A stretch of DNA of 24,000 nt from Orbus sturtevantii (lineage in GTDB: Bacteria > Pseudomonadota > Gammaproteobacteria > Enterobacterales > Orbaceae). Shown here in pieces: positions 7,925-23,659 of the stretch. The notes beneath the pieces were generated by a model, which worked only from the letters and a program-made list of their open reading frames with translations, made no database searches and was not told the DNA's origin. The stretch is taken from assembly GCF_036251875.1 (NCBI RefSeq), contig NZ_CP133960.1; one strand, given 5' to 3'. Each line of letters starts with the position of its first letter. Position 1 is the first letter of the stretch. Position numbers and translations under genes: made by a program.

Positions 7925-8001
7925 GGCTACGTAGCTCAGTTGGTTAGAGCACATCACTCATAATGATGGGGTCACAGGTTCGAATCCCGTCGTAGCCACC
8001 A
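7925..8001 (+). tRNA. metT: tRNA-Met (CAU), elongator
   Basis: The 77-nt sequence GGCTACGTAGCTCAGTTGGTTAGAGCACATCACTCATAATGATGGGGTCACAGGTTCGAATCCCGTCGTAGCCACCA matches E. coli elongator tRNA-Met as I remember it. The CCA end is encoded. Confidence 0.95.
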
Positions 8002-8023
8002 TTAAGATTAAAGAAGTATTAGT

Positions 8024-8108
8024 GCGGGTGTGGCGAAATTGGTAGACGCACCAGATTTAGGTTCTGGCGCCGCGAGGCGTGTGAGTTCAAGTCTCTCCAC
8101 CCGCACCA
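8024..8108 (+). tRNA. leuW: tRNA-Leu (UAG)
   Basis: 85-nt type II tRNA with acceptor GCGGGTG/CACCCGC, anticodon stem CCAGA/TCTGG and loop TTTAGGT (anticodon TAG). It has a long variable arm, a GTTCAAGTC T-loop and an encoded CCA. Confidence 0.92.
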
Positions 8109-8133
8109 TTTAATCTAAGCAATCTTATACCAT

Positions 8134-8207
8134 TGGGGTATAGCCAAGCGGTAAGGCAGCGGGTTTTGATCCCGCCATCCTAGGTTCGAATCCTGGTACC
8201 CCAGCCA
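8134..8207 (+). tRNA. glnU: tRNA-Gln (UUG)
   Basis: 74 nt with acceptor TGGGGTA/TACCCCA, anticodon stem GCGGG/CCCGC and loop TTTTGAT (anticodon TTG). GGTTCGAATCC T-arm and encoded CCA. Confidence 0.92.
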
Positions 8208-8318
8208 TCTTACTAATCACTATTTAGTCAGAGCGCCAATGAAAATTACAATCATTGTATCAACAAGTCTGATTAAAAAATTATGACCCAGCTCGAGCAA
8301 AATCACTTACCTTTATTT

Positions 8319-8393
8319 TGGGGTATAGCCAAGCGGTAAGGCAGCGGATTCTGATTCCGCCATTCCAAGGTTCGAATCCTTGTACCCCAGCCA
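8319..8393 (+). tRNA. glnV: tRNA-Gln (CUG)
   Basis: 75 nt with the same acceptor and D-arm as the previous tRNA. Anticodon stem GCGGA/TCCGC and loop TTCTGAT (anticodon CTG). Encoded CCA. Confidence 0.92.
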
Positions 8394-8502: not shown

Positions 8503-9738
8503 CTAAAATAACTGAGATAAAAAGGAAACACCATTTTGAGGTGGCTCGACATTAAAGTACTCAGCAACCGTTGCTCCCACATCAGACAGTGTCGCCCTCG
8601 TTCCCAAATGTTTACCCTCCACTCCTTTTTTGTATGCTAATAATGGTACTTTTTCACGAGTATGGTTACTGTGACCAATTGTTGGGTCATTGCCATGGTC
8701 TGCCATAATGATTAAAATGTCATCTGACCTTAATTGGGCGATCAACGTACCAATGCGTTTATCGGCTAATTGCAGTAGTTCACTATACCACTGCACATCT
8801 TGTGAATGTCCTGCGAGATCGGTTTCTTGTATGTTTAAAATGATAAGCCCGGTATCCATTTTAGTTGACTCAAGATTTAATTGGTCAAATAAATAATCAC
8901 TATCGACACCGTATATTATTTTTTTGCTGTCAGTTTGAATAATATCTGCCGCTTTACCGATTAAACAAACATCGATACTACTTTTATCTAAAATAGTGGG
9001 AATTTGTACGTTTTTATCAATACCATATCCCAAATGAATGACTTTATAGCCTTTCTTATAAACACCCGATAGTGGCGCATCGATACCTGCAATTGCGTTA
9101 TTTTTTACTTTTCTCGCATTAAGCAAATCTTGCAATGTAATATTTTCACCACCAAAAGTAATAACGCGAGAAACTTGAACTGAGCCACGAACAATGCTAG
9201 CTAATTTTTTTAAATCCTCAAATGAAATAAGATCTAAACAAGCGGTCACATTATACACTTGACCATAGTCTGTTTCTAAATTATCACCAACTGTCACGCA
9301 CTCATTAATCACTAATATTTTAGGGTCTAATTGTTTCCCAACTCTTCTAACGCCGTACCCTGCATTTTTTAGATTTTTTTCAATAATGTCGATCTTATTT
9401 CGAAATGGCTCAATCAACGGAGGCTTAGGCAATGTACCAATAATTTCTTGGTGACCTAAAAATGAATCTGCACCTACATGCGCAAGATTAGCGGTACCCC
9501 AATTTGCTGTCAGCGAAAATTTATGGTGCTTATACTCACAACCGATAGCATTCATTAATCCTAAATTTTCTAAATTGGGGAGCTCTATTGAGGGATTTCG
9601 TTTAATGATATTTAAGGCGGTATTTGAATGAATATCACGAGGTCTTACTTCTGATACATCATCCATGCACCCAATACCGAAACCATCTAATATTATAACA
9701 ATGCATTTGCCTTTTTTTTCTGGAGTCATCTGAATCAT
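8503..9738 (-). CDS. yhfW: Phosphopentomutase-like metalloenzyme (alkaline-phosphatase superfamily), YhfW-like
   Basis: 411 aa (E. coli YhfW is about 408). DeoB-type motifs are present: N-terminal IILDGFGIG, GADSFLGHQE (nucleophile region), DLAGHSQD and ADHGNDPTIGHSNHTREKVPLL. It is the last gene of the yhf-type operon. Confidence 0.85.
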   Translation of the reverse strand: MIQMTPEKKGKCIVIILDGFGIGCMDDVSEVRPRDIHSNTALNIIKRNPSIELPNLENLGLMNAIGCEYKHHKFSLTANWGTANLAHVGADSFLGHQEIIGTLPKPPLIEPFRNKIDIIEKNLKNAGYGVRRVGKQLDPKILVINECVTVGDNLETDYGQVYNVTACLDLISFEDLKKLASIVRGSVQVSRVITFGGENITLQDLLNARKVKNNAIAGIDAPLSGVYKKGYKVIHLGYGIDKNVQIPTILDKSSIDVCLIGKAADIIQTDSKKIIYGVDSDYLFDQLNLESTKMDTGLIILNIQETDLAGHSQDVQWYSELLQLADKRIGTLIAQLRSDDILIIMADHGNDPTIGHSNHTREKVPLLAYKKGVEGKHLGTRATLSDVGATVAEYFNVEPPQNGVSFLSQLF

Positions 9739-9740
9739 AT

Positions 9741-10892
9741 TTACCCCTTTTGCTGACCTAAGCTATCAAAAATACCCTCTAATTTAACTTCGCCATTTTG
9801 TATTCCTGAAACCACCGCAACATCGCTGCGCGTGACAAATATTTGAGTTCTAAAACTCGCTACAACGCTGTTACCGATCGGGTGAGATTTAGATAGCGCC
9901 AAGTAATAATCAATATTCTCATTATCAAATGGCTCAATTTGATCGTCATCTATCCATCTATCGCCTTGATAAATTGATACATTTTTAAAATGACCTCTTG
10001 AATAATAACCACCACCAAAAATAAAACTCTTATGGTCAAAGTTATGAGAGATCTCAGTTAAGTAAACTAAAGCGGGTTTTTCGACTAAACTCTTTTTCGC
10101 ATGTAGCGGTGTTGTGCCAGTGAGAGCATGGCCTGGTTCGCCTTGAGTGCCGCCAAGGAACTTAATCATTGGAATGGTATTACAACTGGTAGCAGAAGGC
10201 ATATTGACCTCTAGGTTATAAAATCCAATATCATTAAGAATTAATTTTGCTAATGATAAGGTATTTATATTTTCAGTAGGCTCTAGTTTGCTCTCGCCAT
10301 TATATAAAAAACATGGGAATGCCGTTATACCCGCAATAATAACGTGCAGTGATTGATGATAAGCTTTTAGCTTAGCCAGCTCATCTAAGGTAAATCCCCC
10401 TTTTTGACCAACATAAATGATATCTTTGTACTCAATCACTTTTATTAATACTTTTTGTTGCTTATTATATTTCTGGCAAACTGCATCAATTTTTTGTAAT
10501 TGTTCAATTGAATAAACAGTAATAAATTTCACGCCATACACAATAAACTCTTCCAATAATGAAAGTGGTACTTGAACTAAATGGCCAATATTGCCGATCG
10601 ATAAGTTATGTGATTTCAATAACAGCGCTTCTTTGTAATCAACCGCTACCGCATCAGCAATACCTGATTGTGATATTTTCTTAGCGATTAAGGGGTTTCG
10701 ACCAAATTGCTTGGTCATATAAAACAGTTCTATTCGATTATTTTGCGCCTCTTGCACCAAATTTTGGGTGTTTTCAATAATGGTATCTAAATCCAATAAA
10801 TAAGTATCGGGCAGAATTAAATTCTTTTTCCTTAAATAAAGTGATGCGTCAATTAATGCGGGGTTTCTACTCTTCACTGTCTCAAGAAACAT
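9741..10892 (-). CDS. yhfX: Fold-type III (alanine-racemase N-terminal-like) PLP enzyme, YhfX-like
   Basis: 383 aa (E. coli YhfX is about 387). It has a TIM-barrel-like N-terminal half with a candidate PLP lysine in YMTKQFGRNP and a beta-rich C-terminal half. There is a 2-nt gap to yhfW. Confidence 0.75.
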   Translation of the reverse strand: MFLETVKSRNPALIDASLYLRKKNLILPDTYLLDLDTIIENTQNLVQEAQNNRIELFYMTKQFGRNPLIAKKISQSGIADAVAVDYKEALLLKSHNLSIGNIGHLVQVPLSLLEEFIVYGVKFITVYSIEQLQKIDAVCQKYNKQQKVLIKVIEYKDIIYVGQKGGFTLDELAKLKAYHQSLHVIIAGITAFPCFLYNGESKLEPTENINTLSLAKLILNDIGFYNLEVNMPSATSCNTIPMIKFLGGTQGEPGHALTGTTPLHAKKSLVEKPALVYLTEISHNFDHKSFIFGGGYYSRGHFKNVSIYQGDRWIDDDQIEPFDNENIDYYLALSKSHPIGNSVVASFRTQIFVTRSDVAVVSGIQNGEVKLEGIFDSLGQQKG

Positions 10893-10898
10893 AAATAA

Positions 10899-11252
10899 TC
10901 ACCTTGCATTTAAAAAATTAACGAGATGAAGATAAATATAATCAGTCTCTGCTTCATATAATTTGAACGATAAAAGTTTTTTTAATTTTCGCCACAGCAT
11001 TTGTGAAGCGAGGAAATGTTCACTAGCAATGATTTCCTCCCTCATATCGTCCTCTAAAAAATTTATATATTCTTTTTTATTATTACGCATGCAAGCCATT
11101 GCTAAATGGGTTATAAAAAAGTCAGCTTTATCTTCGCTATCAATGATATTTTTTGTGATCAAATAATCTAAAATAGCTAAAAGCGAATCGACTGTTGACT
11201 GCTCTAACATATTACTTTGCTTTAGTATGACTAATTTTTCTCTAATCATCAT
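10899..11252 (-). CDS. yhfY: Stand-alone PRD-domain protein, YhfY-like
   Basis: An all-helical protein of about 118 aa with two PRD-type histidine motifs, ITHLAMACMR and YIYLHLVNFL, 60 residues apart. The track ORF starts at TTG 11261. I prefer ATG 11252 or 11249, which follow GGGGGT. Confidence 0.75.
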   Translation of the reverse strand: MMIREKLVILKQSNMLEQSTVDSLLAILDYLITKNIIDSEDKADFFITHLAMACMRNNKKEYINFLEDDMREEIIASEHFLASQMLWRKLKKLLSFKLYEAETDYIYLHLVNFLNAR

Positions 11253-11261
11253 TACCCCCAA

Positions 11262-12185
11262 TTAATACCTTGGTATCATGTCACCATTAACTACTGAGTT
11301 TTGTATTTTTAAAATAGTTTCTTGTTCTAAAATATTACTGATAATAGTTTTTACCACCTGATCATCTCGGTGACAAACGATAACTGAAGCAGTCATATCT
11401 AAAATATCTTCAAAAAAATCAACGGGTAAATAATTTAAATTCTTGAAATCTTTATTGCTAATCTCATCATAATTCCACACCCCAGCATCTATCAAACCAC
11501 TATTAAGCGCATGAATAATTTGGTGTCCAGAGGTTTCAATTAAGGTAATGTCTTTGCTTTTAACAAGCTTTTTTGTAAGAAGCTCCTGATCTAACGAACT
11601 ATAGTCAATCCCTATCTTCATGCCATCTTCTATTGACGATTTATTTTTATCAGAAAATAAAATAACATGACGACTTAAATAACTCTGATCCCCAAAATCA
11701 GCAATAATTTCTATCGGTTCACCCACGCTTAGGGCATGATTTGCTGAATAACGAGAAATAACAGCAAATCGATATGTTTTTTTAACAATGGAATTAACCC
11801 TTTCTTTAGCGCCTCTCAAATAGGCTAAATTTAGCTTAATATTATGTTGTTCAAAAGCGAGGTAAAGACCTGTTGCAAAGCCCTCATACAGTTTGGAATA
11901 CGGCAATGTCATGGTGCCTAAAATAACATCGATAAGTGCATATTTTTGTAAAATAGAATAATCAATAAATTTAATAAATGTGCCTAAATGACCGCGATTA
12001 GAGCAAATGATGGCCTTTTGCTCTTTTAGGTAATTTAATGCATTTTGAACGGTTCCCCTAGCAGCATTATATTTATCCTGGCAGGCACTAATACTCAACA
12101 TTTTGTCATCGGTTTTTAATTGCAATAGATCTAAAGCGAGATAATGAACCATTATTGCTTTCTTTTTATAAAAATGATTATCCAT
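11262..12185 (-). CDS. yhfZ: GntR-type winged-HTH regulator fused to a substrate-binding-protein-like domain, YhfZ-like
   Basis: 307 aa (E. coli YhfZ is about 301). The N-terminus LSISACQDKYNAARGTVQNALNYLKEQKAIICSNRGHLGTFI is a GntR-like wHTH. The remaining ~230 aa are an alpha/beta PBP-like domain. Its stop abuts the yhfY start. Confidence 0.75.
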   Translation of the reverse strand: MDNHFYKKKAIMVHYLALDLLQLKTDDKMLSISACQDKYNAARGTVQNALNYLKEQKAIICSNRGHLGTFIKFIDYSILQKYALIDVILGTMTLPYSKLYEGFATGLYLAFEQHNIKLNLAYLRGAKERVNSIVKKTYRFAVISRYSANHALSVGEPIEIIADFGDQSYLSRHVILFSDKNKSSIEDGMKIGIDYSSLDQELLTKKLVKSKDITLIETSGHQIIHALNSGLIDAGVWNYDEISNKDFKNLNYLPVDFFEDILDMTASVIVCHRDDQVVKTIISNILEQETILKIQNSVVNGDMIPRY

Positions 12186-12196
12186 ATATCACTACT

Positions 12197-13297
12197 CTAT
12201 TCTCTCTTAGCTTCAACTATTGCCTGTTTCAATATTCGAATAATCGTATCAGCGCCTGCTCGATTGGGATTTATTCTTATCATATAATTTTCTGCATTAG
12301 GATCGGATTCTCTAAATGTTCCAGAGACACGATAAAATAAAGGACAGAATTCATATTTTGACTCTGCTCCAACTGGGTTAGTAATTGCCCCATGAATTTC
12401 TGCGACAGCGATAACTGATTTTGCAATTTTTTCAGCTAACCTTACGATAATTACTTTAGATTGAGCATTCACAACCATGGCATCAAGAATATCGGGACAC
12501 TCATGTGAGTTTAACCGTGAACAGACTTCATCACTGACTTGGGATGAAATCGCTAGCGATACTGGTGCATAAATCATCCCTTTAATAACATCTATCGCCT
12601 CGTGCCCCTGAACTTGGCCACCGCCAGAATAATTGTCATGCTTCAATTTTGTAATCTCTTTTTTACGCCCTACAATGCATCCAATTCCTTCTGGCCCTAG
12701 TAGCTTGAAAGATGAAAAACAAGATAGTGTAGCCCCGGCTTGTACCCCTATTTTTTTTGTTTTAAGCGCTGAATAATTATCATCAGTAATGATAAAAATA
12801 TTTTTATCTATTTCCCGAATAGCCGAGATAAGCTCCTCTAAATCATAAGCATCATTAATTTTTTGCCGGGTGACTTGAATCAAAATCCCGTCAAATTTGT
12901 TTTGCTTAACTTTCATCGCCACAGCATTTAAATCATTAAAATCGACTTTTTCGGTACGGATACCGAGCATATTAATTGAGACTTGAGTTGTTGGATAAAT
13001 AGGTGCATCATGTACCAACATCGTTCCACCGTGCCCTACTGTTGCATATAGTGCTAACCTTATAGCATTTGTTCCAGAGCCTCTAATTAATAACGCATCT
13101 TCACTAGCAAAAAACTTAGCTAACACTTTTTCTACTTTCATTGTTGTTTTTGGCTGATTCAAGCCAGGGACTAGCCCTAAATCTCCTCGCGTTAAAATTT
13201 CATGCCCATGAAACGCCTGAGTTATCGCATCAACTAAATCGAACTGTAAGGCAATTGCTTCATCAATCGTCAAACTCTTTAACGGATAAACATTCAT
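12197..13297 (-). CDS. yhfS: Fold-type I PLP-dependent enzyme (aminotransferase/SelA-like), YhfS-like
   Basis: 366 aa (E. coli YhfS is about 361). MNVYPLKSLTIDEA, GDLGLVPGLNQP, HDAPIYPTT, TDDNYS, a candidate Schiff-base lysine in CFSSFKLLGPEGIG, and RINPNRAG at the C-terminus. Confidence 0.8.
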   Translation of the reverse strand: MNVYPLKSLTIDEAIALQFDLVDAITQAFHGHEILTRGDLGLVPGLNQPKTTMKVEKVLAKFFASEDALLIRGSGTNAIRLALYATVGHGGTMLVHDAPIYPTTQVSINMLGIRTEKVDFNDLNAVAMKVKQNKFDGILIQVTRQKINDAYDLEELISAIREIDKNIFIITDDNYSALKTKKIGVQAGATLSCFSSFKLLGPEGIGCIVGRKKEITKLKHDNYSGGGQVQGHEAIDVIKGMIYAPVSLAISSQVSDEVCSRLNSHECPDILDAMVVNAQSKVIIVRLAEKIAKSVIAVAEIHGAITNPVGAESKYEFCPLFYRVSGTFRESDPNAENYMIRINPNRAGADTIIRILKQAIVEAKRE

Positions 13298-13300
13298 TAT

Positions 13301-14182
13301 TTAATTCCTATTCATGAACTTTTGGGGATTTATTGCTAACATTTTATTAATAAAGGAGTCAGAAATACCATGTTCTAACATCATCGGTACAAATACATCG
13401 AGTAAATAAGCGTAACCGATTCCACCAAAATGAGTTAAACTTGACCGTCTCGTGACATCCATTGATAAAAACACCTGATCAACATAACCTCTTTTTTCAA
13501 TCTCTTTTAGCATATTAATTCTTGTTAAATCAGGTAGATAGTTTTGTTTGCCAACAGTATCAAACTCAATGTAGACGCCTTGCTCTAGTACATTTAATAT
13601 CTGATCTATGTCAGGGTTTAAGTCGAGATGGCCAATAACGACTTTCGATAAATCGACACTATTCTTTTTAAAAAAATGAACTTGTTCGATAGCAAACGTA
13701 CCTAATGTAGTGTGGGTCGTAATAGGTTTATTGGTCGCTTTATGAGCTAATACTGCCGCAGCAAAAATTTTCTTTTCATTTAATGTCCAACCATTTTTAC
13801 TTGATCCTATCTCGCCAATTATGTGTGCCTTAATATCTGTGCTCTCAATGCCGACTTCAATTTCATTGATCATAAAATTAGCGATTTGTTTTATAGATTG
13901 GTTAGCAATAAACCCAGAAATAAATTTTTCAGTATAAAATCCAGTAGACTGAATAATGTTAATATTCGTTAAATCGGCTATTTGCTTCACATAAATTGGA
14001 TTTCGACGCATGCCAGCATTCGTTACATCAACGATATTTCTCACGCCTTTTTCGTACAAAATTTTATATTCATTTACCGTCTGCCAAAAACAGTTCAGGT
14101 TTGTATCCTCACTATTTTTTACTGAAGATAAATCTATCGTAGTATGTTCATGCATGTAGGTAATGCCATCGTTCAGTATCAT
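13301..14182 (-). CDS. php: Phosphotriesterase-homology protein (amidohydrolase superfamily)
   Basis: 293 aa (E. coli Php is 292). Equivalents of all binuclear-metal ligands are present: YMHEHTTIDL (HxH), IIGEIGSS (Glu in place of a carbamyl-Lys), ITTHTT, VIGHLDL and LSMDVTRRS. Confidence 0.9.
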   Translation of the reverse strand: MILNDGITYMHEHTTIDLSSVKNSEDTNLNCFWQTVNEYKILYEKGVRNIVDVTNAGMRRNPIYVKQIADLTNINIIQSTGFYTEKFISGFIANQSIKQIANFMINEIEVGIESTDIKAHIIGEIGSSKNGWTLNEKKIFAAAVLAHKATNKPITTHTTLGTFAIEQVHFFKKNSVDLSKVVIGHLDLNPDIDQILNVLEQGVYIEFDTVGKQNYLPDLTRINMLKEIEKRGYVDQVFLSMDVTRRSSLTHFGGIGYAYLLDVFVPMMLEHGISDSFINKMLAINPQKFMNRN

Positions 14183-14196
14183 AATATATCCTTGGC

Positions 14197-15495
14197 CTAT
14201 ACTGACATTAGATTTAACATCACGAGTATGTTTGCAATTACCCCAACAAGTAATGCACCAACTGGACCAATGGCTAAATCGACTAATTTTTTCTTAAATT
14301 TTCCATTCAGTACATACAAGCCAATTACGACTAATCCTCCCCACGCTGGCGCTATTGCGGTTGCAGCGATTACGCCACCAACGAGTAAGGCGATCTCTAA
14401 TACTTTAGTGATTGCCGTTCTTATGTTATCACCGGCATCTCTCATACCTGGGAATTTATCAATGAATAGCGCAAATTTAGTTAAAAGCAATACTTCAACT
14501 GCCATCCAAATACCACCAGCAAAAAATGCTAGCAGTGGATTATTAATTGCACCGCCAATAGAGCCAATAACAAAAACCATTTTAATTCCCGCTGGCGAGT
14601 AAGTGCCTGTTGCTATACCCGTTGTAACAACTAAAGGGATAAAACCAAGCACACGCGCTAACTCGGTTATCGCTGCGGAATCAAAATGGCCTTCTTGATA
14701 TAAGGGAGCGGAAAGCGCTGACTCGGTCACCAAACACATTGATGCCGCTAGTGCTAAAAAAGCCCCAGAGAGCACAAACAGATACCAATACTTTTTGATC
14801 TGCGCCACTCTATCAGCAAAAATATTGGCTAGCTGCTGTTGGGAGTTAGACTTTTCTCGCTTATCTGAAAACGCATAAAATAGCATAAAAAACATACCAA
14901 CCAAGAGAGCCATAGCGTTTGCATTAATCGTAATAGAATTACCGCCTTCAAATTGAAAATGACCAAATCGCACCGTAATCACTTGCGCTAAAACAGTAAA
15001 AATAAAAACGACTAAGCCTTTTTGCCAACCATATTGAAGCGTGACCACAAAAGAAGGGAAAACTGCAAACGCGACTAGCACAACAGAAGAAACCTGGCCT
15101 AGGCTTTGCAAAAAATTATAAGGTAGAAGCTGAAATATCTCTTGGATAAAACCGAGTCCACCACCGATAAGCAGACCATATAAAGCGCCAACAAATCCTG
15201 CTAGGATAATAGTTTGCTTGCCTTTATCTGACAAATAACAACCGATAATATCCGTACCAAGTAAAACGACATGTATGATAATAACGCTTGATGCGATAGA
15301 TTGAGGAATAAAGCCAATGATATAACCGATACCAAAGGCAAAGGCGGTGGTTCCGAGCACGGATTTACTAATTTTTTTTTCTTTGTACTCTAGAACCATT
15401 GGTCGTAAGGCATCATTAAATACCGCAATACCTCGATTTGACATAATCGTTGCGATAGAACAAACACATGCCATGATAATCATATTTAAAATCAT
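14197..15495 (-). CDS. yhfT: Polytopic inner-membrane protein (putative transporter), YhfT-like
   Basis: 432 aa (E. coli YhfT is about 434) with 10 or more hydrophobic segments. AVFNDALRP lies near the N-terminus and GFIPLVVTTGIATGTY and DNIRTAITKVLEIALLVG in the C-terminal half. There is a 7-nt gap to yhfU. Confidence 0.8.
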   Translation of the reverse strand: MILNMIIMACVCSIATIMSNRGIAVFNDALRPMVLEYKEKKISKSVLGTTAFAFGIGYIIGFIPQSIASSVIIIHVVLLGTDIIGCYLSDKGKQTIILAGFVGALYGLLIGGGLGFIQEIFQLLPYNFLQSLGQVSSVVLVAFAVFPSFVVTLQYGWQKGLVVFIFTVLAQVITVRFGHFQFEGGNSITINANAMALLVGMFFMLFYAFSDKREKSNSQQQLANIFADRVAQIKKYWYLFVLSGAFLALAASMCLVTESALSAPLYQEGHFDSAAITELARVLGFIPLVVTTGIATGTYSPAGIKMVFVIGSIGGAINNPLLAFFAGGIWMAVEVLLLTKFALFIDKFPGMRDAGDNIRTAITKVLEIALLVGGVIAATAIAPAWGGLVVIGLYVLNGKFKKKLVDLAIGPVGALLVGVIANILVMLNLMSV

Positions 15496-15502
15496 GTTTA
15501 CC

Positions 15503-15865
15503 TCATTTTTTATTTAATTCATTCATGACTGTTGAAATGATGAAATCCATATCTTGTGAAGTAAACCCAAAAGCAATTTTTCCTGAATTGATGTGATCTA
15601 TAATTTGAGATTCGCTAAGCGTAGTCCCAGGCATACCTAAAGCAATTGCTTTTTCGGAACCAACCAGAGCAATAACCATGGCTAAGGCACCGCCTCCACC
15701 CGTATTACATGCACCAAAATAGTAATCGACCTGCCCTGATTTTAAATCTAAAGCGGCATCAAGATCGGTTTTGATGGTAATTTGATTCTCTTGTGTTTGG
15801 TATTTTTTAATTAATCTTTCAATTTCTTGTTTTTCAATTTGACCGCCGATAACGATTTTTTTCAT
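15503..15865 (-). CDS. yhfU: DUF2620-type small soluble protein, YhfU-like, with an RpiB/LacAB-like Cys-x-Thr-Gly loop
   Basis: 120 aa (E. coli YhfU is about 117). MKKIVIGG... and VDYYFGACNTGGGGALAMVIAL. AAGGGA Shine-Dalgarno 9 nt upstream. It is the first gene of the operon. Confidence 0.75.
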   Translation of the reverse strand: MKKIVIGGQIEKQEIERLIKKYQTQENQITIKTDLDAALDLKSGQVDYYFGACNTGGGGALAMVIALVGSEKAIALGMPGTTLSESQIIDHINSGKIAFGFTSQDMDFIISTVMNELNKK

Positions 15866-15921
15866 ATTTATTTTCCCTTATCTTCAAAGTACAATAATTT
15901 GTATATTGAAGTTATCATATA

Positions 15922-15949
15922 AGAGATAAAATGATGATAAATTATCTCT
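15922..15949. promoter_or_regulatory. 8-bp inverted repeat AGAGATAA-N12-TTATCTCT upstream of yhfU (candidate operator or leader hairpin)
   Basis: The arms are at 15922-15929 and 15942-15949, 57-86 bp upstream of the yhfU start and within a 430-bp non-coding leader. Confidence 0.3.
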
Positions 15950-16218
15950 GGTTTTGCCAAGTAGATCTCAATTTATTTTATATAACCCTGTTGTGGTGCT
16001 TGAAGCGTTGCTTAATCTACAATACCAAGCCTAATTTTGCGTATGATAAAGATAATAAGAAGTTAGAGAACAATCGCATAAACTACCTTTAAAAAGGAAA
16101 AAAATGGTCTGAGTTTTGGTTAAGGACATGATTAAAATCATGGTCGTTTATTCGTGCATACTTTAACGCTTTGCACTATTTTTATATTTTTCTGTATATT
16201 TAGTTAGGTCATATAGTT

Positions 16219-16296: not shown

Positions 16297-17073
16297 TTAC
16301 TTATTAAAACCAATTAACTCAGAAATTTTAGCCGCGGTTTTATTAAGCTCATCTATTAGTTTTTGTTCATCTTCAGCGGTATTACATCTAAAAATCGAAG
16401 TAGATAAGCTAAGTGCAGCGATGATATTACCTAAACGATTATAAATAGGCACAGAAAAGCATCTTAAACCAAGTTCTGATTCTTCATCATCTTTACCATA
16501 ACCACATTGTTTAACCTTATCAAGCTCGGCTAAAAAAGCCTCTTTGCTCATAATAGTTTTGGGTGTAAATTGAATAAAATTCAGATGATCAATGATTTCA
16601 TTTTTACTCTCATCATCTAACCAAGCTAATAGTATTTTGCCAAGACCACTCGCGTAAACATTTGCTTGGTTGCCAATTTTTGATGTTAAACAAAGGCTAT
16701 ATTGCTCTGACGCAACTTTGTTTATATAAATGATCTGCTCACCTTCACGAACTGCTAAATGGATTGTTTCTTTGGTTTTGTCTCTTAATTTTCTCATTTC
16801 ACTATCAGCGATAGCTAAAAAATTTTGATGATCAAGTACTCGATTACCTAAATCAAGCAATTTCAAGTTGAGTGAATATTTATCAGAATCATTTTCTTGA
16901 TTAACATAACCTAGAGATTTCATGGTTTGTAGAAAACGGTAAGCGGTGCTTTTCGGCATCATTACTTTGTTTGATAATTCCGATATAGCAATCTCTTTTG
17001 ATTCTGCTAATACTTCTAAAATTCCAAAAACTTTTAAAACTGAAGCAACGGATTCCGGTGAACTATCATTCAT
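16297..17073 (-). CDS. kdgR: IclR-family pectin-catabolism repressor KdgR
   Basis: SVASVLKVFGILEVLAESKEIAISELSNKVMMPKSTAYRFLQTMKSLGYV and EESELGLRCFSVPIYNRLGNIIAALS are collinear with E. coli and Dickeya KdgR. The neighbouring genes are pectin-catabolism genes. Confidence 0.88.
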   Translation of the reverse strand: MNDSSPESVASVLKVFGILEVLAESKEIAISELSNKVMMPKSTAYRFLQTMKSLGYVNQENDSDKYSLNLKLLDLGNRVLDHQNFLAIADSEMRKLRDKTKETIHLAVREGEQIIYINKVASEQYSLCLTSKIGNQANVYASGLGKILLAWLDDESKNEIIDHLNFIQFTPKTIMSKEAFLAELDKVKQCGYGKDDEESELGLRCFSVPIYNRLGNIIAALSLSTSIFRCNTAEDEQKLIDELNKTAAKISELIGFNK

Positions 17074-17164
17074 GACAAAGACTTTCCTCTCACTAAAATA
17101 AAAGCTAGTAACGTTCTAAATATTAATTAACCAAGCTTATATCTGAACGGCATAAAATGTGCAA

Positions 17165-17173
17165 ATTATACCA
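17165..17173 (-). promoter_or_regulatory. Extended -10 element (TGgTATAAT on the minus strand) upstream of kdgR
   Basis: The reverse complement of 17165-17173 reads TGGTATAAT, about 90 nt upstream of the kdgR ATG in the kdgF-kdgR spacer. Confidence 0.4.
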
Positions 17174-17186
17174 TAAGTAATAATTA

Positions 17187-17516
17187 CTAGCTATTTTTTA
17201 AGAAATCGAGTCGCTGTGGCGTAAATGTATCCAATAAGATCCCCGCCTCTTTACAAACGCAACCATGCATAATATTCGGCTGTTTATACAACGTATCTCC
17301 CGCACTCACGAGATGAGTTTCTCCTCCGATGGTAAACTCAAATATCCCCGATAAAACATAAGTTAATTGTTCATGAGGATGACTATGCATTGCACCGATT
17401 GCATCTTTAGCAAAATGGACTTCTACCGCCATCATCTGACCATTATGGGCAAGAATTTTGCGTTTAACGCCATTACCTAAATCGTCTAATTTCACATCTG
17501 AATTAAAAATGAACAT
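17187..17516 (-). CDS. kdgF: Small cupin KdgF (unsaturated-uronate linearising enzyme family)
   Basis: 109-aa single cupin with metal motif AMHSHPHEQLTYVLSG and a second motif GDTLYKQPNIMHG. Size and context (between kduD-like and kdgR, next to ogl) fit KdgF. Confidence 0.7.
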   Translation of the reverse strand: MFIFNSDVKLDDLGNGVKRKILAHNGQMMAVEVHFAKDAIGAMHSHPHEQLTYVLSGIFEFTIGGETHLVSAGDTLYKQPNIMHGCVCKEAGILLDTFTPQRLDFLKNS

Positions 17517-17607
17517 AATGAAATTTCCTATATGTAAAAAAAGATAAGAAAAAATAAAGCACTTAATCTCTTATCTATTAAATAAACGATACGTTTAATA
17601 TGACAAA

Positions 17608-18408
17608 TTAAGGTTGTTTACCTATATAAGCAAGAATACCTCCGTCAACATAAAGTATATGCCCGTTAACAAAATTAGAGGCTTCTGATGCTAGAAAGAC
17701 TGCCGCACCGGCTAAATCATCAGTAGTGCCCCAACGACCAGCAGGTGTTTTTGCGATAATAAACTGGTCGAATGGATGGCGAGAACCATCTGCTTGCTTT
17801 TCACGTAATGGGGCTGTTTGTGGCGTTGCAATATAACCCGGACCAATTCCATTACATTGGATATTAGCATGGCCAAATTCAGAGCAGATATTTTTAGTTA
17901 ACATTTTTAATCCCCCTTTTGCCGAAGCATAACCTACAACAGTTTCACGACCAAGTTCGCTCATCATTGAGCAGATATTAATAATTTTTCCGCTCCCTTT
18001 TTTGATCATTGAAGGTAATACGGCTTTTGCCATAATAAATTGACCTGTTAAATCGATATCAATGATTTTTCTATAATCTTCGGCTGTCGTTTCTAACATG
18101 GGTTTACGTTGAATAATTCCAGCATTATTGACAAGAATATCAATAACACCATGTTCTTTTTCTATCTGTTTAATTGTTTTTTCTACTGCTACATCATCGG
18201 TGATATCAAATAAGTAACCATGGGCATTAATTCCAGCCGCTTTATAAGCATCCAAACCTTTTTGTAAATTTTCAGCTACGACATCATTAAAAACTATTTT
18301 TGCCCCAGCAGAATGAAGTGATTTTGCGATTTCGAACCCAATTCCATAAGATGCGCCTGTTACTAGTGCAATTTTGTTATTAAGTGAAAATTTATTTAAA
18401 ATTGACAT
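17608..18408 (-). CDS. SDR-family 2-dehydro-3-deoxy-D-gluconate 5-dehydrogenase, IdnO/DhuD-like rather than classical KduD
   Basis: TGASYGIG Rossmann motif, NNAG, and catalytic S...YASAKGGLKMLTK. The residues around INICSMMSELGRETVVGYASAKGG and TPAGRWG resemble gluconate-5-dehydrogenase-type SDRs more than E. coli KduD. Confidence 0.75.
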   Translation of the reverse strand: MSILNKFSLNNKIALVTGASYGIGFEIAKSLHSAGAKIVFNDVVAENLQKGLDAYKAAGINAHGYLFDITDDVAVEKTIKQIEKEHGVIDILVNNAGIIQRKPMLETTAEDYRKIIDIDLTGQFIMAKAVLPSMIKKGSGKIINICSMMSELGRETVVGYASAKGGLKMLTKNICSEFGHANIQCNGIGPGYIATPQTAPLREKQADGSRHPFDQFIIAKTPAGRWGTTDDLAGAAVFLASEASNFVNGHILYVDGGILAYIGKQP

Positions 18409-18472
18409 ATTAGTATTCTCCGTTAAATTTTTAATAGATAAAATCTATCTATTATTTATAGAAATAATTTTC

Positions 18473-19645
18473 TTACATTTCATTTAAAATAGCTGTAGGT
18501 ACTTTTGTTAAGTAGAGAGCAGGCACATCCTTTGCATCACAAGAATATAGTACATATTCATTATTAGGCGAAAATGAAGGATGAGGATGAGTTACTTGAC
18601 GATCGCCATCTAATACTCGCCAAGAGCTATTATGTTTAACCAGTTTATGTACTCTTTTATTTTTTGGCGTCAAAATATATAACCAAGGATCATTTTCAAT
18701 TTTATACCCCCCCGTATCCTTTACATCAACAGGGCTACCAGAACCATCACCAATATAAAGAGAACCATCAAAATTACTCATTAAATGAGAACAAGCAGGC
18801 ATTTCCATAATAAGAGAATCTTGTTTAGTATCTGGATTATAAATTCGAATATACCTTTCTTGTTGTCCTTTCATATAAGAAACATAAGCAAGCCCAGAAC
18901 CGTTTGGTAACCAAAATTCATGGGTACAACTTTCACCTGGCTGATGTTCATGCGCTTTTCTTTCATTTGTTCCATCGCTATTAACTAGCCACATTCGCGC
19001 ATCGACTAAATCGTGGGGACCTTCATGACAAAAAGCAATTGTCTCGTCATGAAATGGTCTAAAAATTGGATGACCTAGCCACACATTTTGGTCAATAACT
19101 GTTTTCGCTTTTCCGCTATGAATATTTATATTAATCAATCTGCAACGCGGATTTTTATCATAAAATGATTTAAACAATTCCCAATCAGTTAAAGGCGTCC
19201 AATCTTTTTTGGCAATCTCGATTCCCACAATTTGTGTACAATCAGAGTTCGCAACCCATGTGCCATAACCAACCCAATCATCAGGAACCGAATAGATGTT
19301 TTTCTCTTCTAACGTTTCAAGTTCGACTCGCTGTAAATTTCGTTCATTTTTTACATAGTATAAAAATTTATCATCTGGCGAGAGAAAGCCACCAAAGGTA
19401 TTATCTCCAGTCCCTTCAGTAAGTTGCGTCGCTGTTTGATCTTTTAGATCGAGTAAATAATAGTTACGTTTTTTATCGAACTCGCCAGCAAAAAGGATTT
19501 TCTGCCCGTCATTAGTAAAACACTTTTGGTAAAAATAGTTACGGTGGCAAAGTACTCCTTCAGGAGTTAATCGAATAATTTCATTTTTAGAATCTTCATC
19601 AATAAACGATGAAAATGTTAATCTTACGATATTTCCCTTAGCCAT
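18473..19645 (-). CDS. ogl: Oligogalacturonate lyase (PL22)
   Basis: 390 aa. CHRNYFYQKCFTNDGQKILFAGEFD, TEGTGDNTFGGFLSP, VPDDWVGYGTWVANSDCT, CHEGPHDLVDARMW and DRQVTHPHPSFSP are nearly collinear with Dickeya Ogl (388 aa). Confidence 0.93.
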   Translation of the reverse strand: MAKGNIVRLTFSSFIDEDSKNEIIRLTPEGVLCHRNYFYQKCFTNDGQKILFAGEFDKKRNYYLLDLKDQTATQLTEGTGDNTFGGFLSPDDKFLYYVKNERNLQRVELETLEEKNIYSVPDDWVGYGTWVANSDCTQIVGIEIAKKDWTPLTDWELFKSFYDKNPRCRLININIHSGKAKTVIDQNVWLGHPIFRPFHDETIAFCHEGPHDLVDARMWLVNSDGTNERKAHEHQPGESCTHEFWLPNGSGLAYVSYMKGQQERYIRIYNPDTKQDSLIMEMPACSHLMSNFDGSLYIGDGSGSPVDVKDTGGYKIENDPWLYILTPKNKRVHKLVKHNSSWRVLDGDRQVTHPHPSFSPNNEYVLYSCDAKDVPALYLTKVPTAILNEM

Positions 19646-19729
19646 AAAGACTCCTAACAGTAAATAATAAATGAAATAAGTTACTTATATTTGATTAGTA
19701 GCATAATAATATAAAACCGATTATTGTTT

Positions 19730-19745
19730 TGTGATTAATATCACA
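19730..19745. promoter_or_regulatory. Consensus CRP-binding site TGTGA-N6-TCACA
   Basis: TGTGATTAATATCACA has both half-sites perfect. With -10 TATTAT (minus strand, 19703-19708) the site centre falls near -41.5 of an inferred ogl start around 19696, which is class II geometry. Confidence 0.65.
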
Positions 19746-19758
19746 TATCAATTAATTT

Positions 19759-19777
19759 ATCGAAACGTCGTTTTATT
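19759..19777. promoter_or_regulatory. Candidate KdgR operator
   Basis: ATCGAAACGTCGTTTTATT has a perfectly palindromic core AAACG-T-CGTTT. It matches about 17 of 19 positions of the gammaproteobacterial KdgR-box consensus as I remember it (AATRAAAYRNYGTTTYATT). It lies in the ogl/isomerase divergent region. Confidence 0.5.
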
Positions 19778-19790
19778 TTATTCAAATCAA

Positions 19791-19818
19791 TTGAAATAAT
19801 TTTTATCAAGTTTATAAT
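19791..19818 (+). promoter_or_regulatory. Sigma-70 promoter for the RpiB-like isomerase gene
   Basis: -35 TTGAAA (19791-19796), 16-bp spacer, -10 TATAAT (19813-19818), about 80 bp upstream of the ATG at 19897. Confidence 0.5.
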
Positions 19819-19896
19819 AAATATATTGAATTTATTTATAGTACTTATTATTAGCGTAGATTATTACTTATTTATAATAAATTTAGAGGATAAATT

Positions 19897-20532
19897 ATGA
19901 AAATTGCTTTAATGAACGAATTTAGCCAAGCAGCTAAAAATCCTATTATTTTGAATGAATTAAAAAATGCTACTGAAAAACATGGTCATACCGTTTTTAA
20001 TGTGGGCATGAATAGTGACAACGATAACAAATTAACTTATGTTCATTTAGGGATTATTGGCGCGATTCTTTTAAATAGTAAAGCTGTTGATTTTGTTATC
20101 GCTGGCTGCGGAACGGGACAAGGTGCACTAATGGCATTAAATGCGTTTCCTGGCGTTAACTGTGGTTACTGTTTAGATCCAACTGACGCATACCTTTTCG
20201 CTCAAGTGAATAATGGTAATGCTTTATCATTAGCATTTGCTAAAGGTTTTGGTTGGGGTGCAGAACTTAATGCGCGCTATATGTTTGAAAAAGCATTTGA
20301 AGGAGAAAAAGGCTTGGGGTACCCACCTGAGCGCCGCGAATCACAAAATGCCAATGGCATTATTTTAAATAACATGAAAAATGCAGCGGCAAAACCACTG
20401 ATTGAATCATTAAAATCCATTGATCAAACATTACTTAAAGATGCAATTAAAGGCGAACGTTTTCAAGCCTGTTTCCTTAAAAACAGTAAAGATGCTGAAC
20501 TAACTAATTATATAAAAAGCTTATTGAATTAA
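19897..20532 (+). CDS. RpiB/LacAB-family isomerase, DhuI-type candidate 4-deoxy-L-threo-5-hexosulose-uronate ketol-isomerase
   Basis: 211 aa. VDFVIAGCGTGQGALMALNAFPGVNCGYC...NNGNALSLAF aligns with the RpiB core [27 protein letters not shown]...DTNVLAFG. It is about 60 aa longer than RpiB, as in streptococcal DhuI. It is divergent from ogl behind the CRP and KdgR sites. Confidence 0.65.
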   Translation: MKIALMNEFSQAAKNPIILNELKNATEKHGHTVFNVGMNSDNDNKLTYVHLGIIGAILLNSKAVDFVIAGCGTGQGALMALNAFPGVNCGYCLDPTDAYLFAQVNNGNALSLAFAKGFGWGAELNARYMFEKAFEGEKGLGYPPERRESQNANGIILNNMKNAAAKPLIESLKSIDQTLLKDAIKGERFQACFLKNSKDAELTNYIKSLLN

Positions 20533-20554
20533 GTTATTCTTATAATCTCTTTTG

Positions 20555-20588
20555 AAGATCGCTTGTTTTAAGTGATCTTTAAATTTTT
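20555..20588 (+). terminator. Rho-independent terminator of the isomerase gene
   Basis: AAGATCGCTT-GTTTT-AAGTGATCTT, a 10-bp stem with one G:U pair, followed by TAAATTTTT. It begins 23 nt after the stop codon. Confidence 0.55.
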
Positions 20589-20728
20589 AACATGTTTACT
20601 AAAATCGAGTTTACATTGCTATTTTTATACATAAGTAAACCTATTTGTTAACTTTCACGCTGTTAACTAGCCTTTTCAATCAAAATACCAATCTACATAT
20701 ATTCAACTAACTAAACTCATCCGCCACT

Positions 20729-20784
20729 CAATTTAGATCTAGCAATTTAGTTCTAACAATTTAGATCTAAAAATTTAAAGTTAG
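20729..20784. repeat. 14-bp tandem repeat x4 (CAATTTAGATCTAG-like)
   Basis: The units are CAATTTAGATCTAG, CAATTTAGTTCTAA, CAATTTAGATCTAA and a degenerate AAATTTAAAGTTAG (10/14), arranged head to tail. Two units carry AGATCT, which includes a GATC Dam site. Confidence 0.8.
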
Positions 20785-20811
20785 CTATTTATAATTTGCA
20801 TATAAATAGCT
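20783..20811. repeat. 11-bp perfect inverted repeat (AGCTATTTATA-N7-TATAAATAGCT) abutting the tandem repeat
   Basis: The arms are at 20783-20793 and 20801-20811 and are exact reverse complements. The loop is ATTTGCA. Confidence 0.8.
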
Positions 20812-20862
20812 TGAAATTAATGATGCTAAAAATTATTAAATATCACTAAAATAACCTAGTCA

Positions 20863-20896
20863 TTGGTAAGTTTTTCATTACCAAAACCTAGGTTTT
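20863..20896 (-). terminator. Hairpin plus 14-bp palindrome downstream of the PL9 lyase gene (terminator candidate)
   Basis: TTGGTAA-GTTTTTCA-TTACCAA (7-bp stem) overlaps the perfect palindrome AAAACCTAGGTTTT (20883-20896). This begins 17 nt past the lyase stop on the minus strand. Confidence 0.4.
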
Positions 20897-20912
20897 ACGT
20901 GCTAAATATGCT

Positions 20913-23150: not shown

Positions 23151-23167
23151 TTCTGTTCCTAATATAT

Positions 23168-23659
23168 TTATAATATAACTTTTTGAGTTGGTAATAGACT
23201 TGTGCTATTAAAATCGACGTCATTAATAGCGCTCCAATTATTATAGTTAGTGCCAAAGGTATTTAATCTTATATATTTCGCTGTAATAGGATGAGAAAAG
23301 ACAAATTTTTCTGCTAATTTATTCTCAATTGCCGTTGTTTGGTATTTACCGGGTATATCTACCCATTGATTACCATCAAGTGAATAAGAGATAGAAAAGG
23401 ATAGTAATCGTTCTTTTGATTTAAAGGAATTAATAGCAATATTATCAATTTTTTCCTCTTGCTTAAATTCAAACAAAACCCAGTTATTTTTACCTGATGC
23501 CGCCCATCTTGTTGATGTGTTGCCATCGATCAAATTAGCCGGGGTATGATTACTTTTTTGGTCATAGCTAGACGCGCTAACGGTTTTAACATCCACAGCG
23601 TAAGCACTAACTGATAATCCTAAAACACTAACAATAAAAATAGCACGATATAATTTCAT
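23168..23659 (-). CDS. Secreted stand-alone F5/8 type C (discoidin, CBM32-like) carbohydrate-binding protein
   Basis: Signal peptide ending in SAYA/VD. ANLIDGNTSTRWAASGKNNWVLFEF and KYIRLNTFGTNYNNWSAINDVDF are hallmark F5/8-type-C motifs. It lies 17 nt upstream of the PL9 gene. Confidence 0.8.
   Translation of the reverse strand: MKLYRAIFIVSVLGLSVSAYAVDVKTVSASSYDQKSNHTPANLIDGNTSTRWAASGKNNWVLFEFKQEEKIDNIAINSFKSKERLLSFSISYSLDGNQWVDIPGKYQTTAIENKLAEKFVFSHPITAKYIRLNTFGTNYNNWSAINDVDFNSTSLLPTQKVIL

Follow-up and report, generated by a model that had tools for sequence, protein, structure and literature searches.

The gammaproteobacterium Orbus sturtevantii carries an eight-gene yhf cluster in a 24,000-nucleotide stretch of contig NZ_CP133960.1 (assembly GCF_036251875.1), the whole of which is here called the window. 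Side by side within this cluster lie yhfZ, which encodes a protein with a winged helix-turn-helix (HTH) domain, and yhfY, whose product is a bona fide domain-minimal PRD, the type of domain whose histidines are phosphorylated by HPr and/or EIIB of the phosphotransferase system (PTS) to control antiterminator activity. Alignments presented below show that YhfY keeps the complete PRD phosphorylation-site signature, H49-x6-R56 together with E102-xx-Y-xxx-H109, and a survey of loci shows that it is an obligate component of the yhf catabolic cluster. We assign a probability of about 0.45 to the reading, drawn from sequence comparison, that YhfY would be a phosphorylation-dependent co-regulator acting in trans on YhfZ, the two proteins operating at a conserved palindrome with phosphorylated HPr (HPr~P) as the phosphoryl donor. 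The two genes, and the domains of YhfZ, are placed as follows:

10899-11252, minus strand: yhfY, 117-residue free-standing PRD protein (Pfam PF00874); a TTG at 11261 is an alternative start (120 codons)
11262-12185, minus strand: yhfZ, 307-residue regulator (Pfam HTH_41 and YhfZ_C; NCBIfam YhfZ_full equivalog)
about 11973-12107, minus strand: winged HTH of YhfZ (Pfam HTH_41)
about 11265-11963, minus strand: YhfZ_C, the periplasmic-binding-protein-like domain of YhfZ (Pfam YhfZ_C)

These open reading frames (ORFs) have the coordinates given in an earlier sequence-only reading of this DNA, with yhfZ ending at 11262 and yhfY starting 0-9 nt further on, at either TTG or ATG. The TTG of the 120-codon yhfY ORF (10899-11261) abuts the yhfZ stop codon (11262-11264), and the ATG at 11252 lies 9 nt past that stop; the ATG is the likelier start because a GGGGG run resembling a Shine-Dalgarno sequence precedes it and the 117-residue product is present in the database (entry P0001). 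The two ORFs happen to share a reading frame (11253-11264), with a single TAA and 9 nt between them; one stop-codon readthrough or mutation would yield a YhfZ-PRD fusion, of which none is seen in the databases, and the shared frame is not general in other loci.

The sequence-only reading had described YhfY as a single PRD and nothing else, with neither a CAT RNA-binding nor a DNA-binding domain, and had agreed to fall if a profile search revealed no PRD fold. Pfam PF00874 in fact matched YhfY with an E-value of 9.7e-8 (32.7 bits against a cut-off of 23), over residues 28-115 of the 120 and model positions 4-89 of 90, and no other family was matched in the Pfam scan. Likewise, 95 of the 102 YhfY-family members individually matched PF00874, and the profile of these 102 sequences recovered the PRDs of Bacillus subtilis LicT (PDB: 1tlv) with an E-value of 7.6e-13, both being matched. 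The AlphaFold2 (AF2) model of YhfY (predicted local distance difference test score, pLDDT, 97; predicted TM-score, pTM, 0.89) is all-helical, with one N-terminal helix and five further helices, and its best Foldseek matches in the PDB were PRDs: 3rio (GlcT CAT-PRD1; probability 0.97, TM-score 0.56), 3nuf (TM-score 0.60) and 1tlv (TM-score 0.52), at E-values that are weak, as expected of a small helical domain. A single YhfY sequence retrieved a chance match only from the PDB, and 2 proteins in a word-index homologue search; the family profile and exhaustive HMMER searching were needed. The exact sequence of the window YhfY had no match in the contig index. Over 1.84 billion representative proteins, HMMER retrieved 413 YhfY-related clusters at E<=1e-3 and 123 at E<=1e-10 (clusters counted at 50% identity), and nearly all of the 150 relatives listed from the 413 clusters are 108-135 residues long. 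The domain is present once, as one match over one stretch, and being the only domain in 117 residues it is accompanied by no CAT RNA-binding domain of the antiterminator kind. As to which PRD of the antiterminators it most resembles, the YhfY family profile scores 30.1 bits with PRD2 of LicT and 23.3 with PRD1, and on the NCBIfam GlcT model YhfY is matched best over positions 170-271 of 272, taken here to be the PRD2 of that model; this gives a weak hint of likeness to PRD2.

The residues on which PRD chemistry depends are encoded at these positions:

11106-11108, minus strand: codon (CAT) of His49, H52 in the 120-codon numbering, in the motif FITHLAMAxxR; first putative phosphorylation site
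11085-11087, minus strand: codon of Arg56, the H-x6-R partner of the first site; 100% conserved
10947-10949, minus strand: codon of Glu102, in the motif E-xx-Y-xx-L-H; 100% conserved
10926-10928, minus strand: codon (CAT) of His109, H112 in the 120-codon numbering, in the motif YIYLHL; second putative phosphorylation site

Both histidines had been noticed from the letters alone, under the 120-codon numbering, as lying in PRD-type motifs about 60 residues apart, the spacing of LicT-type PRDs, and their conservation in relatives had been put forward as a point on which the idea could fail. The codons are indeed CAT. In the family profile alignment H49 falls on the column of LicT H100 and H207 and H109 on that of LicT H159 and H269, and the structure 1h99, a LicT H207D/H269D mutant, shows Asp at these two columns. 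Furthermore, R56 aligns with the Arg of the LicT segments HINFAIQR and HLKFFAQR, and E102 with the Glu of EAGFIALH and ELLYLTIH. Across 149 YhfY relatives H49 is conserved in 100%, as are R56 and E102, and H109 in 95% (Asn in 3%), in an alignment whose mean column identity is only about 33%. Neither of the two sequence-level grounds on which the sequence-only reading could have failed therefore applies. On the basis of conservation only, we infer that YhfY would be phosphorylated by the PTS.

The gene immediately upstream had been read as a GntR-like winged HTH joined to a binding-protein-like domain, and the profile and structure matches agree with that description. Pfam recognises HTH_41 and YhfZ_C in YhfZ, along with a weak match to the NMT1/THI5 binding-protein family; the NCBIfam equivalog YhfZ_full (NF041241) is matched over residues 4-307 at 369 bits against a cut-off of 260; and the C-terminal domain matches PDB 2ozz, a solved fragment of YhfZ, with an E-value of 7.5e-24. 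Its best 120 relatives are almost all 306-309 residues long, apart from a few truncated entries, and most of them combine HTH_41 with YhfZ_C; many also match GntR (PF00392), and the NCBI name is 'GntR family transcriptional regulator YhfZ'. The yhf clusters have no other DNA-binding protein in common.

How constantly the two proteins travel together was assessed in two independently seeded samples: 1) a YhfZ-seeded one with one genome per species, comprising 10 loci (from Alkalibacterium, Clostridium, Desnuesiella, Dubosiella, Paenibacillus, a Halanaerobiaceae metagenome-assembled genome and Paratractidigestivibacter); and 2) a YhfY-seeded one of metagenome contigs, comprising 61 loci found with a 28-sequence seed subset that is biased to proteins with F[IL]THLAMA. 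Clustering of YhfY at 80% identity reduced the combined samples to 46 lineages. The YhfY family hidden Markov model found exactly one YhfY per locus in all 10 YhfZ-seeded loci and in E. coli, and both yhfY and yhfZ are present in 40 of the 40 lineages with enough flanking sequence. The other six, in which no YhfZ is visible, have less than 750 nt of upstream sequence, and in two of these (L035 and L036) the visible stretch shows no YhfZ directly before yhfY. All eight yhf families are found in the window, as they are in E. coli and in the 46 lineages, some of which lack php, the gene of a phosphotriesterase-family enzyme.

In 34 of the 40 lineages yhfZ lies no more than 500 nt upstream of yhfY on the same strand, and this adjacency recurs in at least four operon orders. 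Written with the final letters of the yhf genes and P for php, the orders with Z directly before Y are U-T-P-S-Z-Y-X-W (the window, Alkalibacterium and many gut-metagenome contigs), Z-Y-U-T-P-S-X-W, Z-Y-T-U-(P)-S-X-W and Z-Y-X-W-P-U-T-S. Lineages without php (L052 and the L070 group) keep yhfY beside yhfZ. Even the lowest-ranked YhfY relative among the matches listed lies in a full yhf cluster directly after YhfZ, in the order Z-Y-U-T-P-amidase-S-X-W. Given this last match and the adjacency across orders, the PRD family seems to be confined to the yhf cluster, and Z-Y behaves as a module. The sequence-only reading had further placed the regulator pair in the middle of the operon, between enzyme genes; that is true of the window and of Lactobacillales-type loci, whereas E. 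coli and most lineages have yhfZ-yhfY at the head of the operon.

A possible site of action for YhfZ emerged upstream of the first gene of the cluster:

15890-15903, no strand assigned: palindrome TACAAATTATTGTA (TACA-N6-TGTA), 24-37 nt upstream of the yhfU ATG
15931-15960, minus strand: weak sigma-70-like promoter match TTGGCA-18-CATCAT (9 of 12 in a consensus scan), upstream of the palindrome; a pattern match only

Of 26 representative loci, 15 have an exact TACA-N6-TGTA with an A/T-rich spacer in the 300 nt that precede the first cluster gene, and 8 of the remaining 11 have a version with one mismatch; in other parts of these loci the motif has a background frequency of 0.016 per 300 nt. 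It precedes the first cluster gene whether that gene is yhfU or yhfZ, and besides the window it was found in L001, L003-L007, L009, L014, L016, L024, L026, L027, L053, L058 and L067. The support comes from this cross-locus conservation, because the single exact match in the window is not significant by itself, at least one match arising in 34 of 100 shuffled sequences. In Lactobacillales-type loci ATATACAAAAAAATGTATAT stands between a good promoter and the ribosome-binding site (RBS) of yhfU; these loci also contain a second palindrome, GTAATTATTAATTAC, just past the -10 box. A promoter and terminator scan of the operon returned fewer matches than did shuffled sequences and was informative for no more than the weak promoter noted above. 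Since YhfZ is the one DNA-binding protein that the clusters share, TACA-N6-TGTA is a candidate YhfZ operator, and its position suggests repression.

These observations can be assembled into the following scheme. YhfZ would bind the TACA-N6-TGTA that lies past the promoter and ahead of the RBS of the operon's first gene. Through its binding-protein-like domain it would sense a pathway metabolite and respond as a repressor or switch, and YhfY would modulate it in trans according to the phosphorylation of H49 and H109. The donor would most likely be the general PTS protein HPr~P, because the cluster contains no EIIB, EIIA, HPr or EI; the statement of the sequence-only reading that the window has no EI, HPr or EII gene holds for all its ORFs of at least 100 residues, with YhfU and YhfT given a separate check, and no HPr-like small ORF was found outside the window genes. 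YhfY could thereby report the availability of preferred PTS sugars, amounting to catabolite control of the kind exerted through the HPr-targeted PRD2 of LicT-type regulators. In the window the Z-Y pair would also regulate its own synthesis, as would follow from the eight genes lying on one tightly packed transcript.

The evidence on how closely YhfY is tied to YhfZ, as opposed to other products of the cluster, comes from gene fusions and from co-evolution. Three sequence clusters with less than 50% mutual identity (P0052, P0061 and P0143) consist of fusions of a YhfY-type PRD to Php, 406-411 residues long, with both histidines kept. Their genes are:

10001-11236 of locus L012: PRD::Php fusion gene
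1324-2556 of locus L014: PRD::Php fusion gene
10001-11221 of locus L015: PRD::Php fusion gene

The orders of these loci are Z(divergent)|X-W-U-T-[Y::P]-S, Z-[Y::P]-S-X and Z-U-T-[Y::P]-S-X-W, so yhfZ is present in all three. In a further locus, L079, the order is Y-P-Z, with yhfY overlapping php, yhfZ downstream and a divergent DeoR-type gene. Covariation between YhfY and YhfZ, which the sequence-only reading had proposed to measure, was examined by the mirror-tree approach, a comparison of distance matrices over 23 complete loci. The correlation of YhfY with YhfZ was r = 0.80 (partial r 0.54) and that with YhfX 0.83 (0.55); partial correlations were -0.02 with Php and -0.33 and -0.26 with YhfU and YhfT, respectively. 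YhfU and YhfT correlated with each other at 0.95 (partial 0.91), and Php joined them. The method thus mainly resolves two modules, U/T/Php and Z/Y/X/W/S, and the pattern probably reflects the shuffling of gene modules; it is compatible with a Y-Z partnership and not specific for one. Among the proteins of the yhf cluster YhfY has the highest mean p-distance (0.71).

Several of these results weigh against YhfY being a trans-acting partner of YhfZ: 1) The PRD is absent from all of the best 120 YhfZ relatives, and no YhfZ::PRD fusion occurs among them or among the 150 listed YhfY relatives. 2) The sole PRD fusions seen are to Php, and in two of the loci concerned, L012 and L015, the PRD is no longer next to yhfZ but has stayed with php. 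3) The co-evolution of YhfY with YhfZ is no stronger than that with YhfX. 4) Y and Z are separated or divergent in a few lineages (L005, L007, L042, L073 and L079). 5) In E. coli YhfY the second site is Asn, and the protein reaches 20.2 bits, below the Pfam PRD cut-off of 23. 6) The palindrome is absent upstream of E. coli yhfZ. 7) The PRD1 and PRD2 scores of YhfY differ little and do not discriminate between the two. The fifth and sixth points suggest that the enterobacterial version may be regulated differently. Of the proposal in the sequence-only reading, that the two genes encode a PRD-containing transcription factor split into two polypeptides, one part has gained ground, in that YhfY is a genuine PRD with YhfZ as its constant companion (40 of 40 lineages, adjacent in 34). 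That the two work together as one regulator is plausible; no YhfZ::PRD fusion stands among the relatives listed, the fusions found are to Php, and the co-evolution is not specific for YhfZ.

The fusions lend themselves to a different interpretation, which we regard as unlikely yet the best placed of the alternatives: YhfY may serve Php, or the metabolic machinery at large, as an accessory or regulatory subunit that gates catalysis by the state of the PTS rather than acting on YhfZ, and its place next to yhfZ may be a matter of inherited gene order. The three fusion clusters, which keep both histidines and occur in three operon orders, speak for it, as do the association of the PRD with php away from yhfZ in L012 and L015 and the overlap of yhfY with php in L079. 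However, clusters without php, namely L052, and L070 with its relatives, retain yhfY beside yhfZ; the partial correlation between YhfY and Php is -0.02; the fusions account for just 3 of 150 listed representatives; and with yhfZ kept in all three fusion loci, the fused PRD could still contact YhfZ. We also know of no precedent for a PRD that controls an enzyme.

A similarly improbable interpretation, judged a shade less likely than the last, is that the PRD of YhfY has degenerated and lost its phosphorylation by the PTS, the protein serving as a structural, dimerising or ligand-sensing adaptor for YhfZ or some other partner. No PTS protein is encoded in the cluster or the window, the E. coli protein has lost its second histidine and falls short of the Pfam cut-off, and the family as a whole is very divergent, as its mean p-distance shows. 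Such divergence nevertheless has spared precisely H49, R56 and E102, which are invariant, and, at 95%, H109, amid a mean column identity of about 33%; these conserved residues are the LicT phospho-site columns, a pattern hard to explain without phospho-chemistry.

The products of yhfU and yhfT were considered as possible disguised PTS components. YhfU has an invariant cysteine, Cys53, in the motif DYYxGACxTGGGGAL, and the possibility that it is a hidden EIIB was rejected: the top Foldseek matches of its AF2 model (pLDDT 96) are type-B ribose-5-phosphate isomerases (RpiB; TM-score 0.63-0.71, probability 0.99-1.0), with no EIIB among the top 50, and its sequence matches, which are weak, are to RpiB/LacAB only. 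YhfU is accordingly predicted from the model to have an RpiB/LacAB-like fold. YhfT, taken as a candidate relative of EIIC, gave no Pfam PTS EIIC match even at E<=10 and has no PDB relative. The almost perfect tracking of divergence between the two proteins (r 0.95) suggests a YhfT-YhfU complex. That YhfY is instead a phosphocarrier, which would take the phosphoryl group from HPr~P, hand it on either to Cys53 of YhfU, next to the transporter YhfT, or to the pathway substrate, and so supply a missing kinase step, is very improbable: the phosphomutase-like YhfW, the RpiB-like YhfU with its invariant Cys and a phosphotriesterase enzyme with a sub-threshold match to phospho-furanose lactonase, the lack of a kinase in the yhf cluster of the window, and the reversibility of phosphoryl exchange between PRD and EIIB would suit it, but the divergence of YhfY is anti-correlated with that of the YhfU/YhfT module, the Cys of RpiB acts as a catalytic base and is not a known phospho-acceptor, YhfT has no similarity to EIIC, some loci have a neighbouring kinase (an FGGY kinase in L010), and we know of no PRD with a phosphocarrier role.

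Regulation of YhfZ in trans by a phosphorylated YhfY thus remains the reading that we prefer. Still tentatively, and in wider terms, the yhf cluster could be the first case of PRD control in trans, in which an HPr-phosphorylated YhfY would dock onto YhfZ, and in some lineages onto Php or be fused to it, coupling PTS sugar status to a non-PTS catabolic operon in organisms from Enterobacteria and Orbaceae to Firmicutes and Coriobacteriia. If so, PTS signaling would reach further than is known at present, through a PRD that is a subunit of its own and acts on DNA-binding proteins of an unrelated class, and the existence of hundreds of small PRD-only proteins (the 413 clusters at 50% identity) would be accounted for. 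The present results also bear on a long-standing gap in the 'y-ome' of E. coli K-12, the eight-gene yhf operon, which is conserved across phyla. They offer several testable handles: the residues H49, R56, E102 and H109, the candidate operator at 15890-15903, and the PRD::Php fusions, which name a second candidate partner.

The remaining genes of the operon are the following:

15503-15865, minus strand: yhfU (Pfam DUF2620), first operon gene
14197-15495, minus strand: yhfT, 432-residue membrane protein, putative transporter (Pfam YhfT, E 8e-129)
13301-14182, minus strand: php, phosphotriesterase-family (amidohydrolase) enzyme (Pfam PTE, E 3e-78)
12197-13297, minus strand: yhfS, pyridoxal phosphate (PLP)-dependent enzyme of fold type I (Pfam YhfS-like_C and Aminotran_5)
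9741-10892, minus strand: yhfX, PLP-binding alanine-racemase-like enzyme (Pfam Ala_racemase_N and YhfX-like_C)
8503-9738, minus strand: yhfW, phosphopentomutase-like metalloenzyme, last operon gene (NCBIfam PRK12383, 564 bits)

All eight genes are on the minus strand and are transcribed in the order yhfU-yhfT-php-yhfS-yhfZ-yhfY-yhfX-yhfW, with intergenic gaps of 2-14 nt; the lactonase likeness of Php mentioned above is a sub-threshold NCBIfam match to phospho-furanose lactonase. In other lineages some yhf clusters include accessory genes (L005 1683-6325; L007 8127-8852; L010 7680-9170 and 15550-16533; L077 10972-11955), among them an Opp/Dpp-type ABC transporter with a beta-lactamase-fold protein, a NagB-like deaminase/isomerase, an FGGY kinase and an amidase-like gene. 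Such a repertoire suggests that the substrate is phosphorylated and resembles an amino sugar or a peptide; phosphorylated amino-sugar-acid or lactone compounds are among the candidates.

The genes that flank the cluster are of gammaproteobacterial type; among them are those for SeqA, Pgm, MoaC/E, the CCA-adding enzyme and KdgR-, Ogl- and KduD-like proteins of pectin degradation, the KduD-like protein sharing 90% identity or more with proteins of Gilliamella and Orbus. The cluster itself, on the other hand, is nearest to Lactobacillales versions, with 56-62% identity in YhfZ and an identical gene order. Four tRNA genes (Met-CAT, Leu-TAG, Gln-TTG and Gln-CTG; 7925-8393, plus strand) converge on the end of the operon about 110 nt beyond the yhfW stop and are a possible integration landmark. 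The affinity to Lactobacillales versions, the Orbaceae-like flanks and the adjoining tRNA genes together suggest horizontal acquisition of the cluster; base composition (GC content) showed no difference between cluster and flanks. Between the two tRNA-Gln genes lies a near-palindrome, TACAATCATTGTA (N5 spacing; 8247-8259), which is probably a chance occurrence. Adjoining the operon on its other side, at 16297-23659, is a pectin/oligogalacturonide utilisation neighbourhood with genes for a KdgR-like IclR regulator, a cupin, a short-chain dehydrogenase/reductase resembling KduD/gluconate-5-dehydrogenase, an oligogalacturonate lyase, an RpiB-like protein with DUF3666, a Pel9A-like beta-helix protein and an F5/8 type C domain protein.

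The closest known system is the E. coli K-12 cluster itself, yhfZYXW-php-yhfUTS, which has the same eight families and, as in the window, adjacent and co-directional yhfZ and yhfY (b3383 and b3382). RefSeq names their products 'putative DNA-binding transcriptional regulator YhfZ' and 'PRD domain-containing protein YhfY'; as the pair is annotated there, the components and their adjacency are not in themselves a new observation. The two versions differ in that Z-Y lead the operon in E. coli and lie between yhfS and yhfX in the window, and in that the YhfY proteins share 22% identity, the E. coli copy (L011 11061-11423) having Asn in place of the second His. Full-text searches, in which 'PRD' is an overloaded acronym, found no paper characterising YhfY, YhfZ or the yhf operon, the sole mentions of YhfZ being in screens, as a 'putative transcription factor'. 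Just one curated family consists of small PRD-only proteins, TIGR03582 (the EF_0829/AHA_3910 family), whose members lie in a conserved cluster of uncharacterised genes. The YhfY family is distinct from it, since the window YhfY scores 18.6 bits against a cut-off of 69.35 and only 18 of 102 YhfY-family members match it at E<=1e-3; YhfY has no dedicated NCBIfam model.

On the side of the DNA-binding partner, YhfZ shares with the GntR family the N-terminal winged HTH, and a palindromic candidate operator fits a dimeric HTH protein of this kind, whereas its effector domain is the binding-protein-like fold of YhfZ_C (2ozz) and not the classical C-terminal domain of FadR, HutC, MocR or YtrA. PTS proteins are known to act in trans on separate DNA-binding regulators, as HPr(Ser-P) and Crh do with CcpA and EIIB(Glc) with Mlc. 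These systems resemble the present proposal in that a PTS protein modulates a regulator encoded by another gene, and differ from it in that the partners are HPr or EIIB domains rather than PRDs and the regulators belong to the LacI and ROK families rather than the YhfZ type. To our knowledge, every characterised PRD controls a nucleic-acid-binding regulator through phosphorylation of its histidines by HPr and/or EIIB, and all are built into the regulator that they control. The mechanism proposed here would be a novel variation on PRD regulation, for which we found no characterised precedent. With the antiterminators BglG, SacY, LicT and GlcT, YhfY has in common the PRD fold, both histidine columns, the accompanying Arg and Glu and the spacing of about 60 residues; but each antiterminator joins its CAT RNA-binding domain to a pair of PRDs on a single chain, whereas YhfY is one PRD, and its presumed output domain would reside on a separate protein that combines an HTH with a binding-protein fold.

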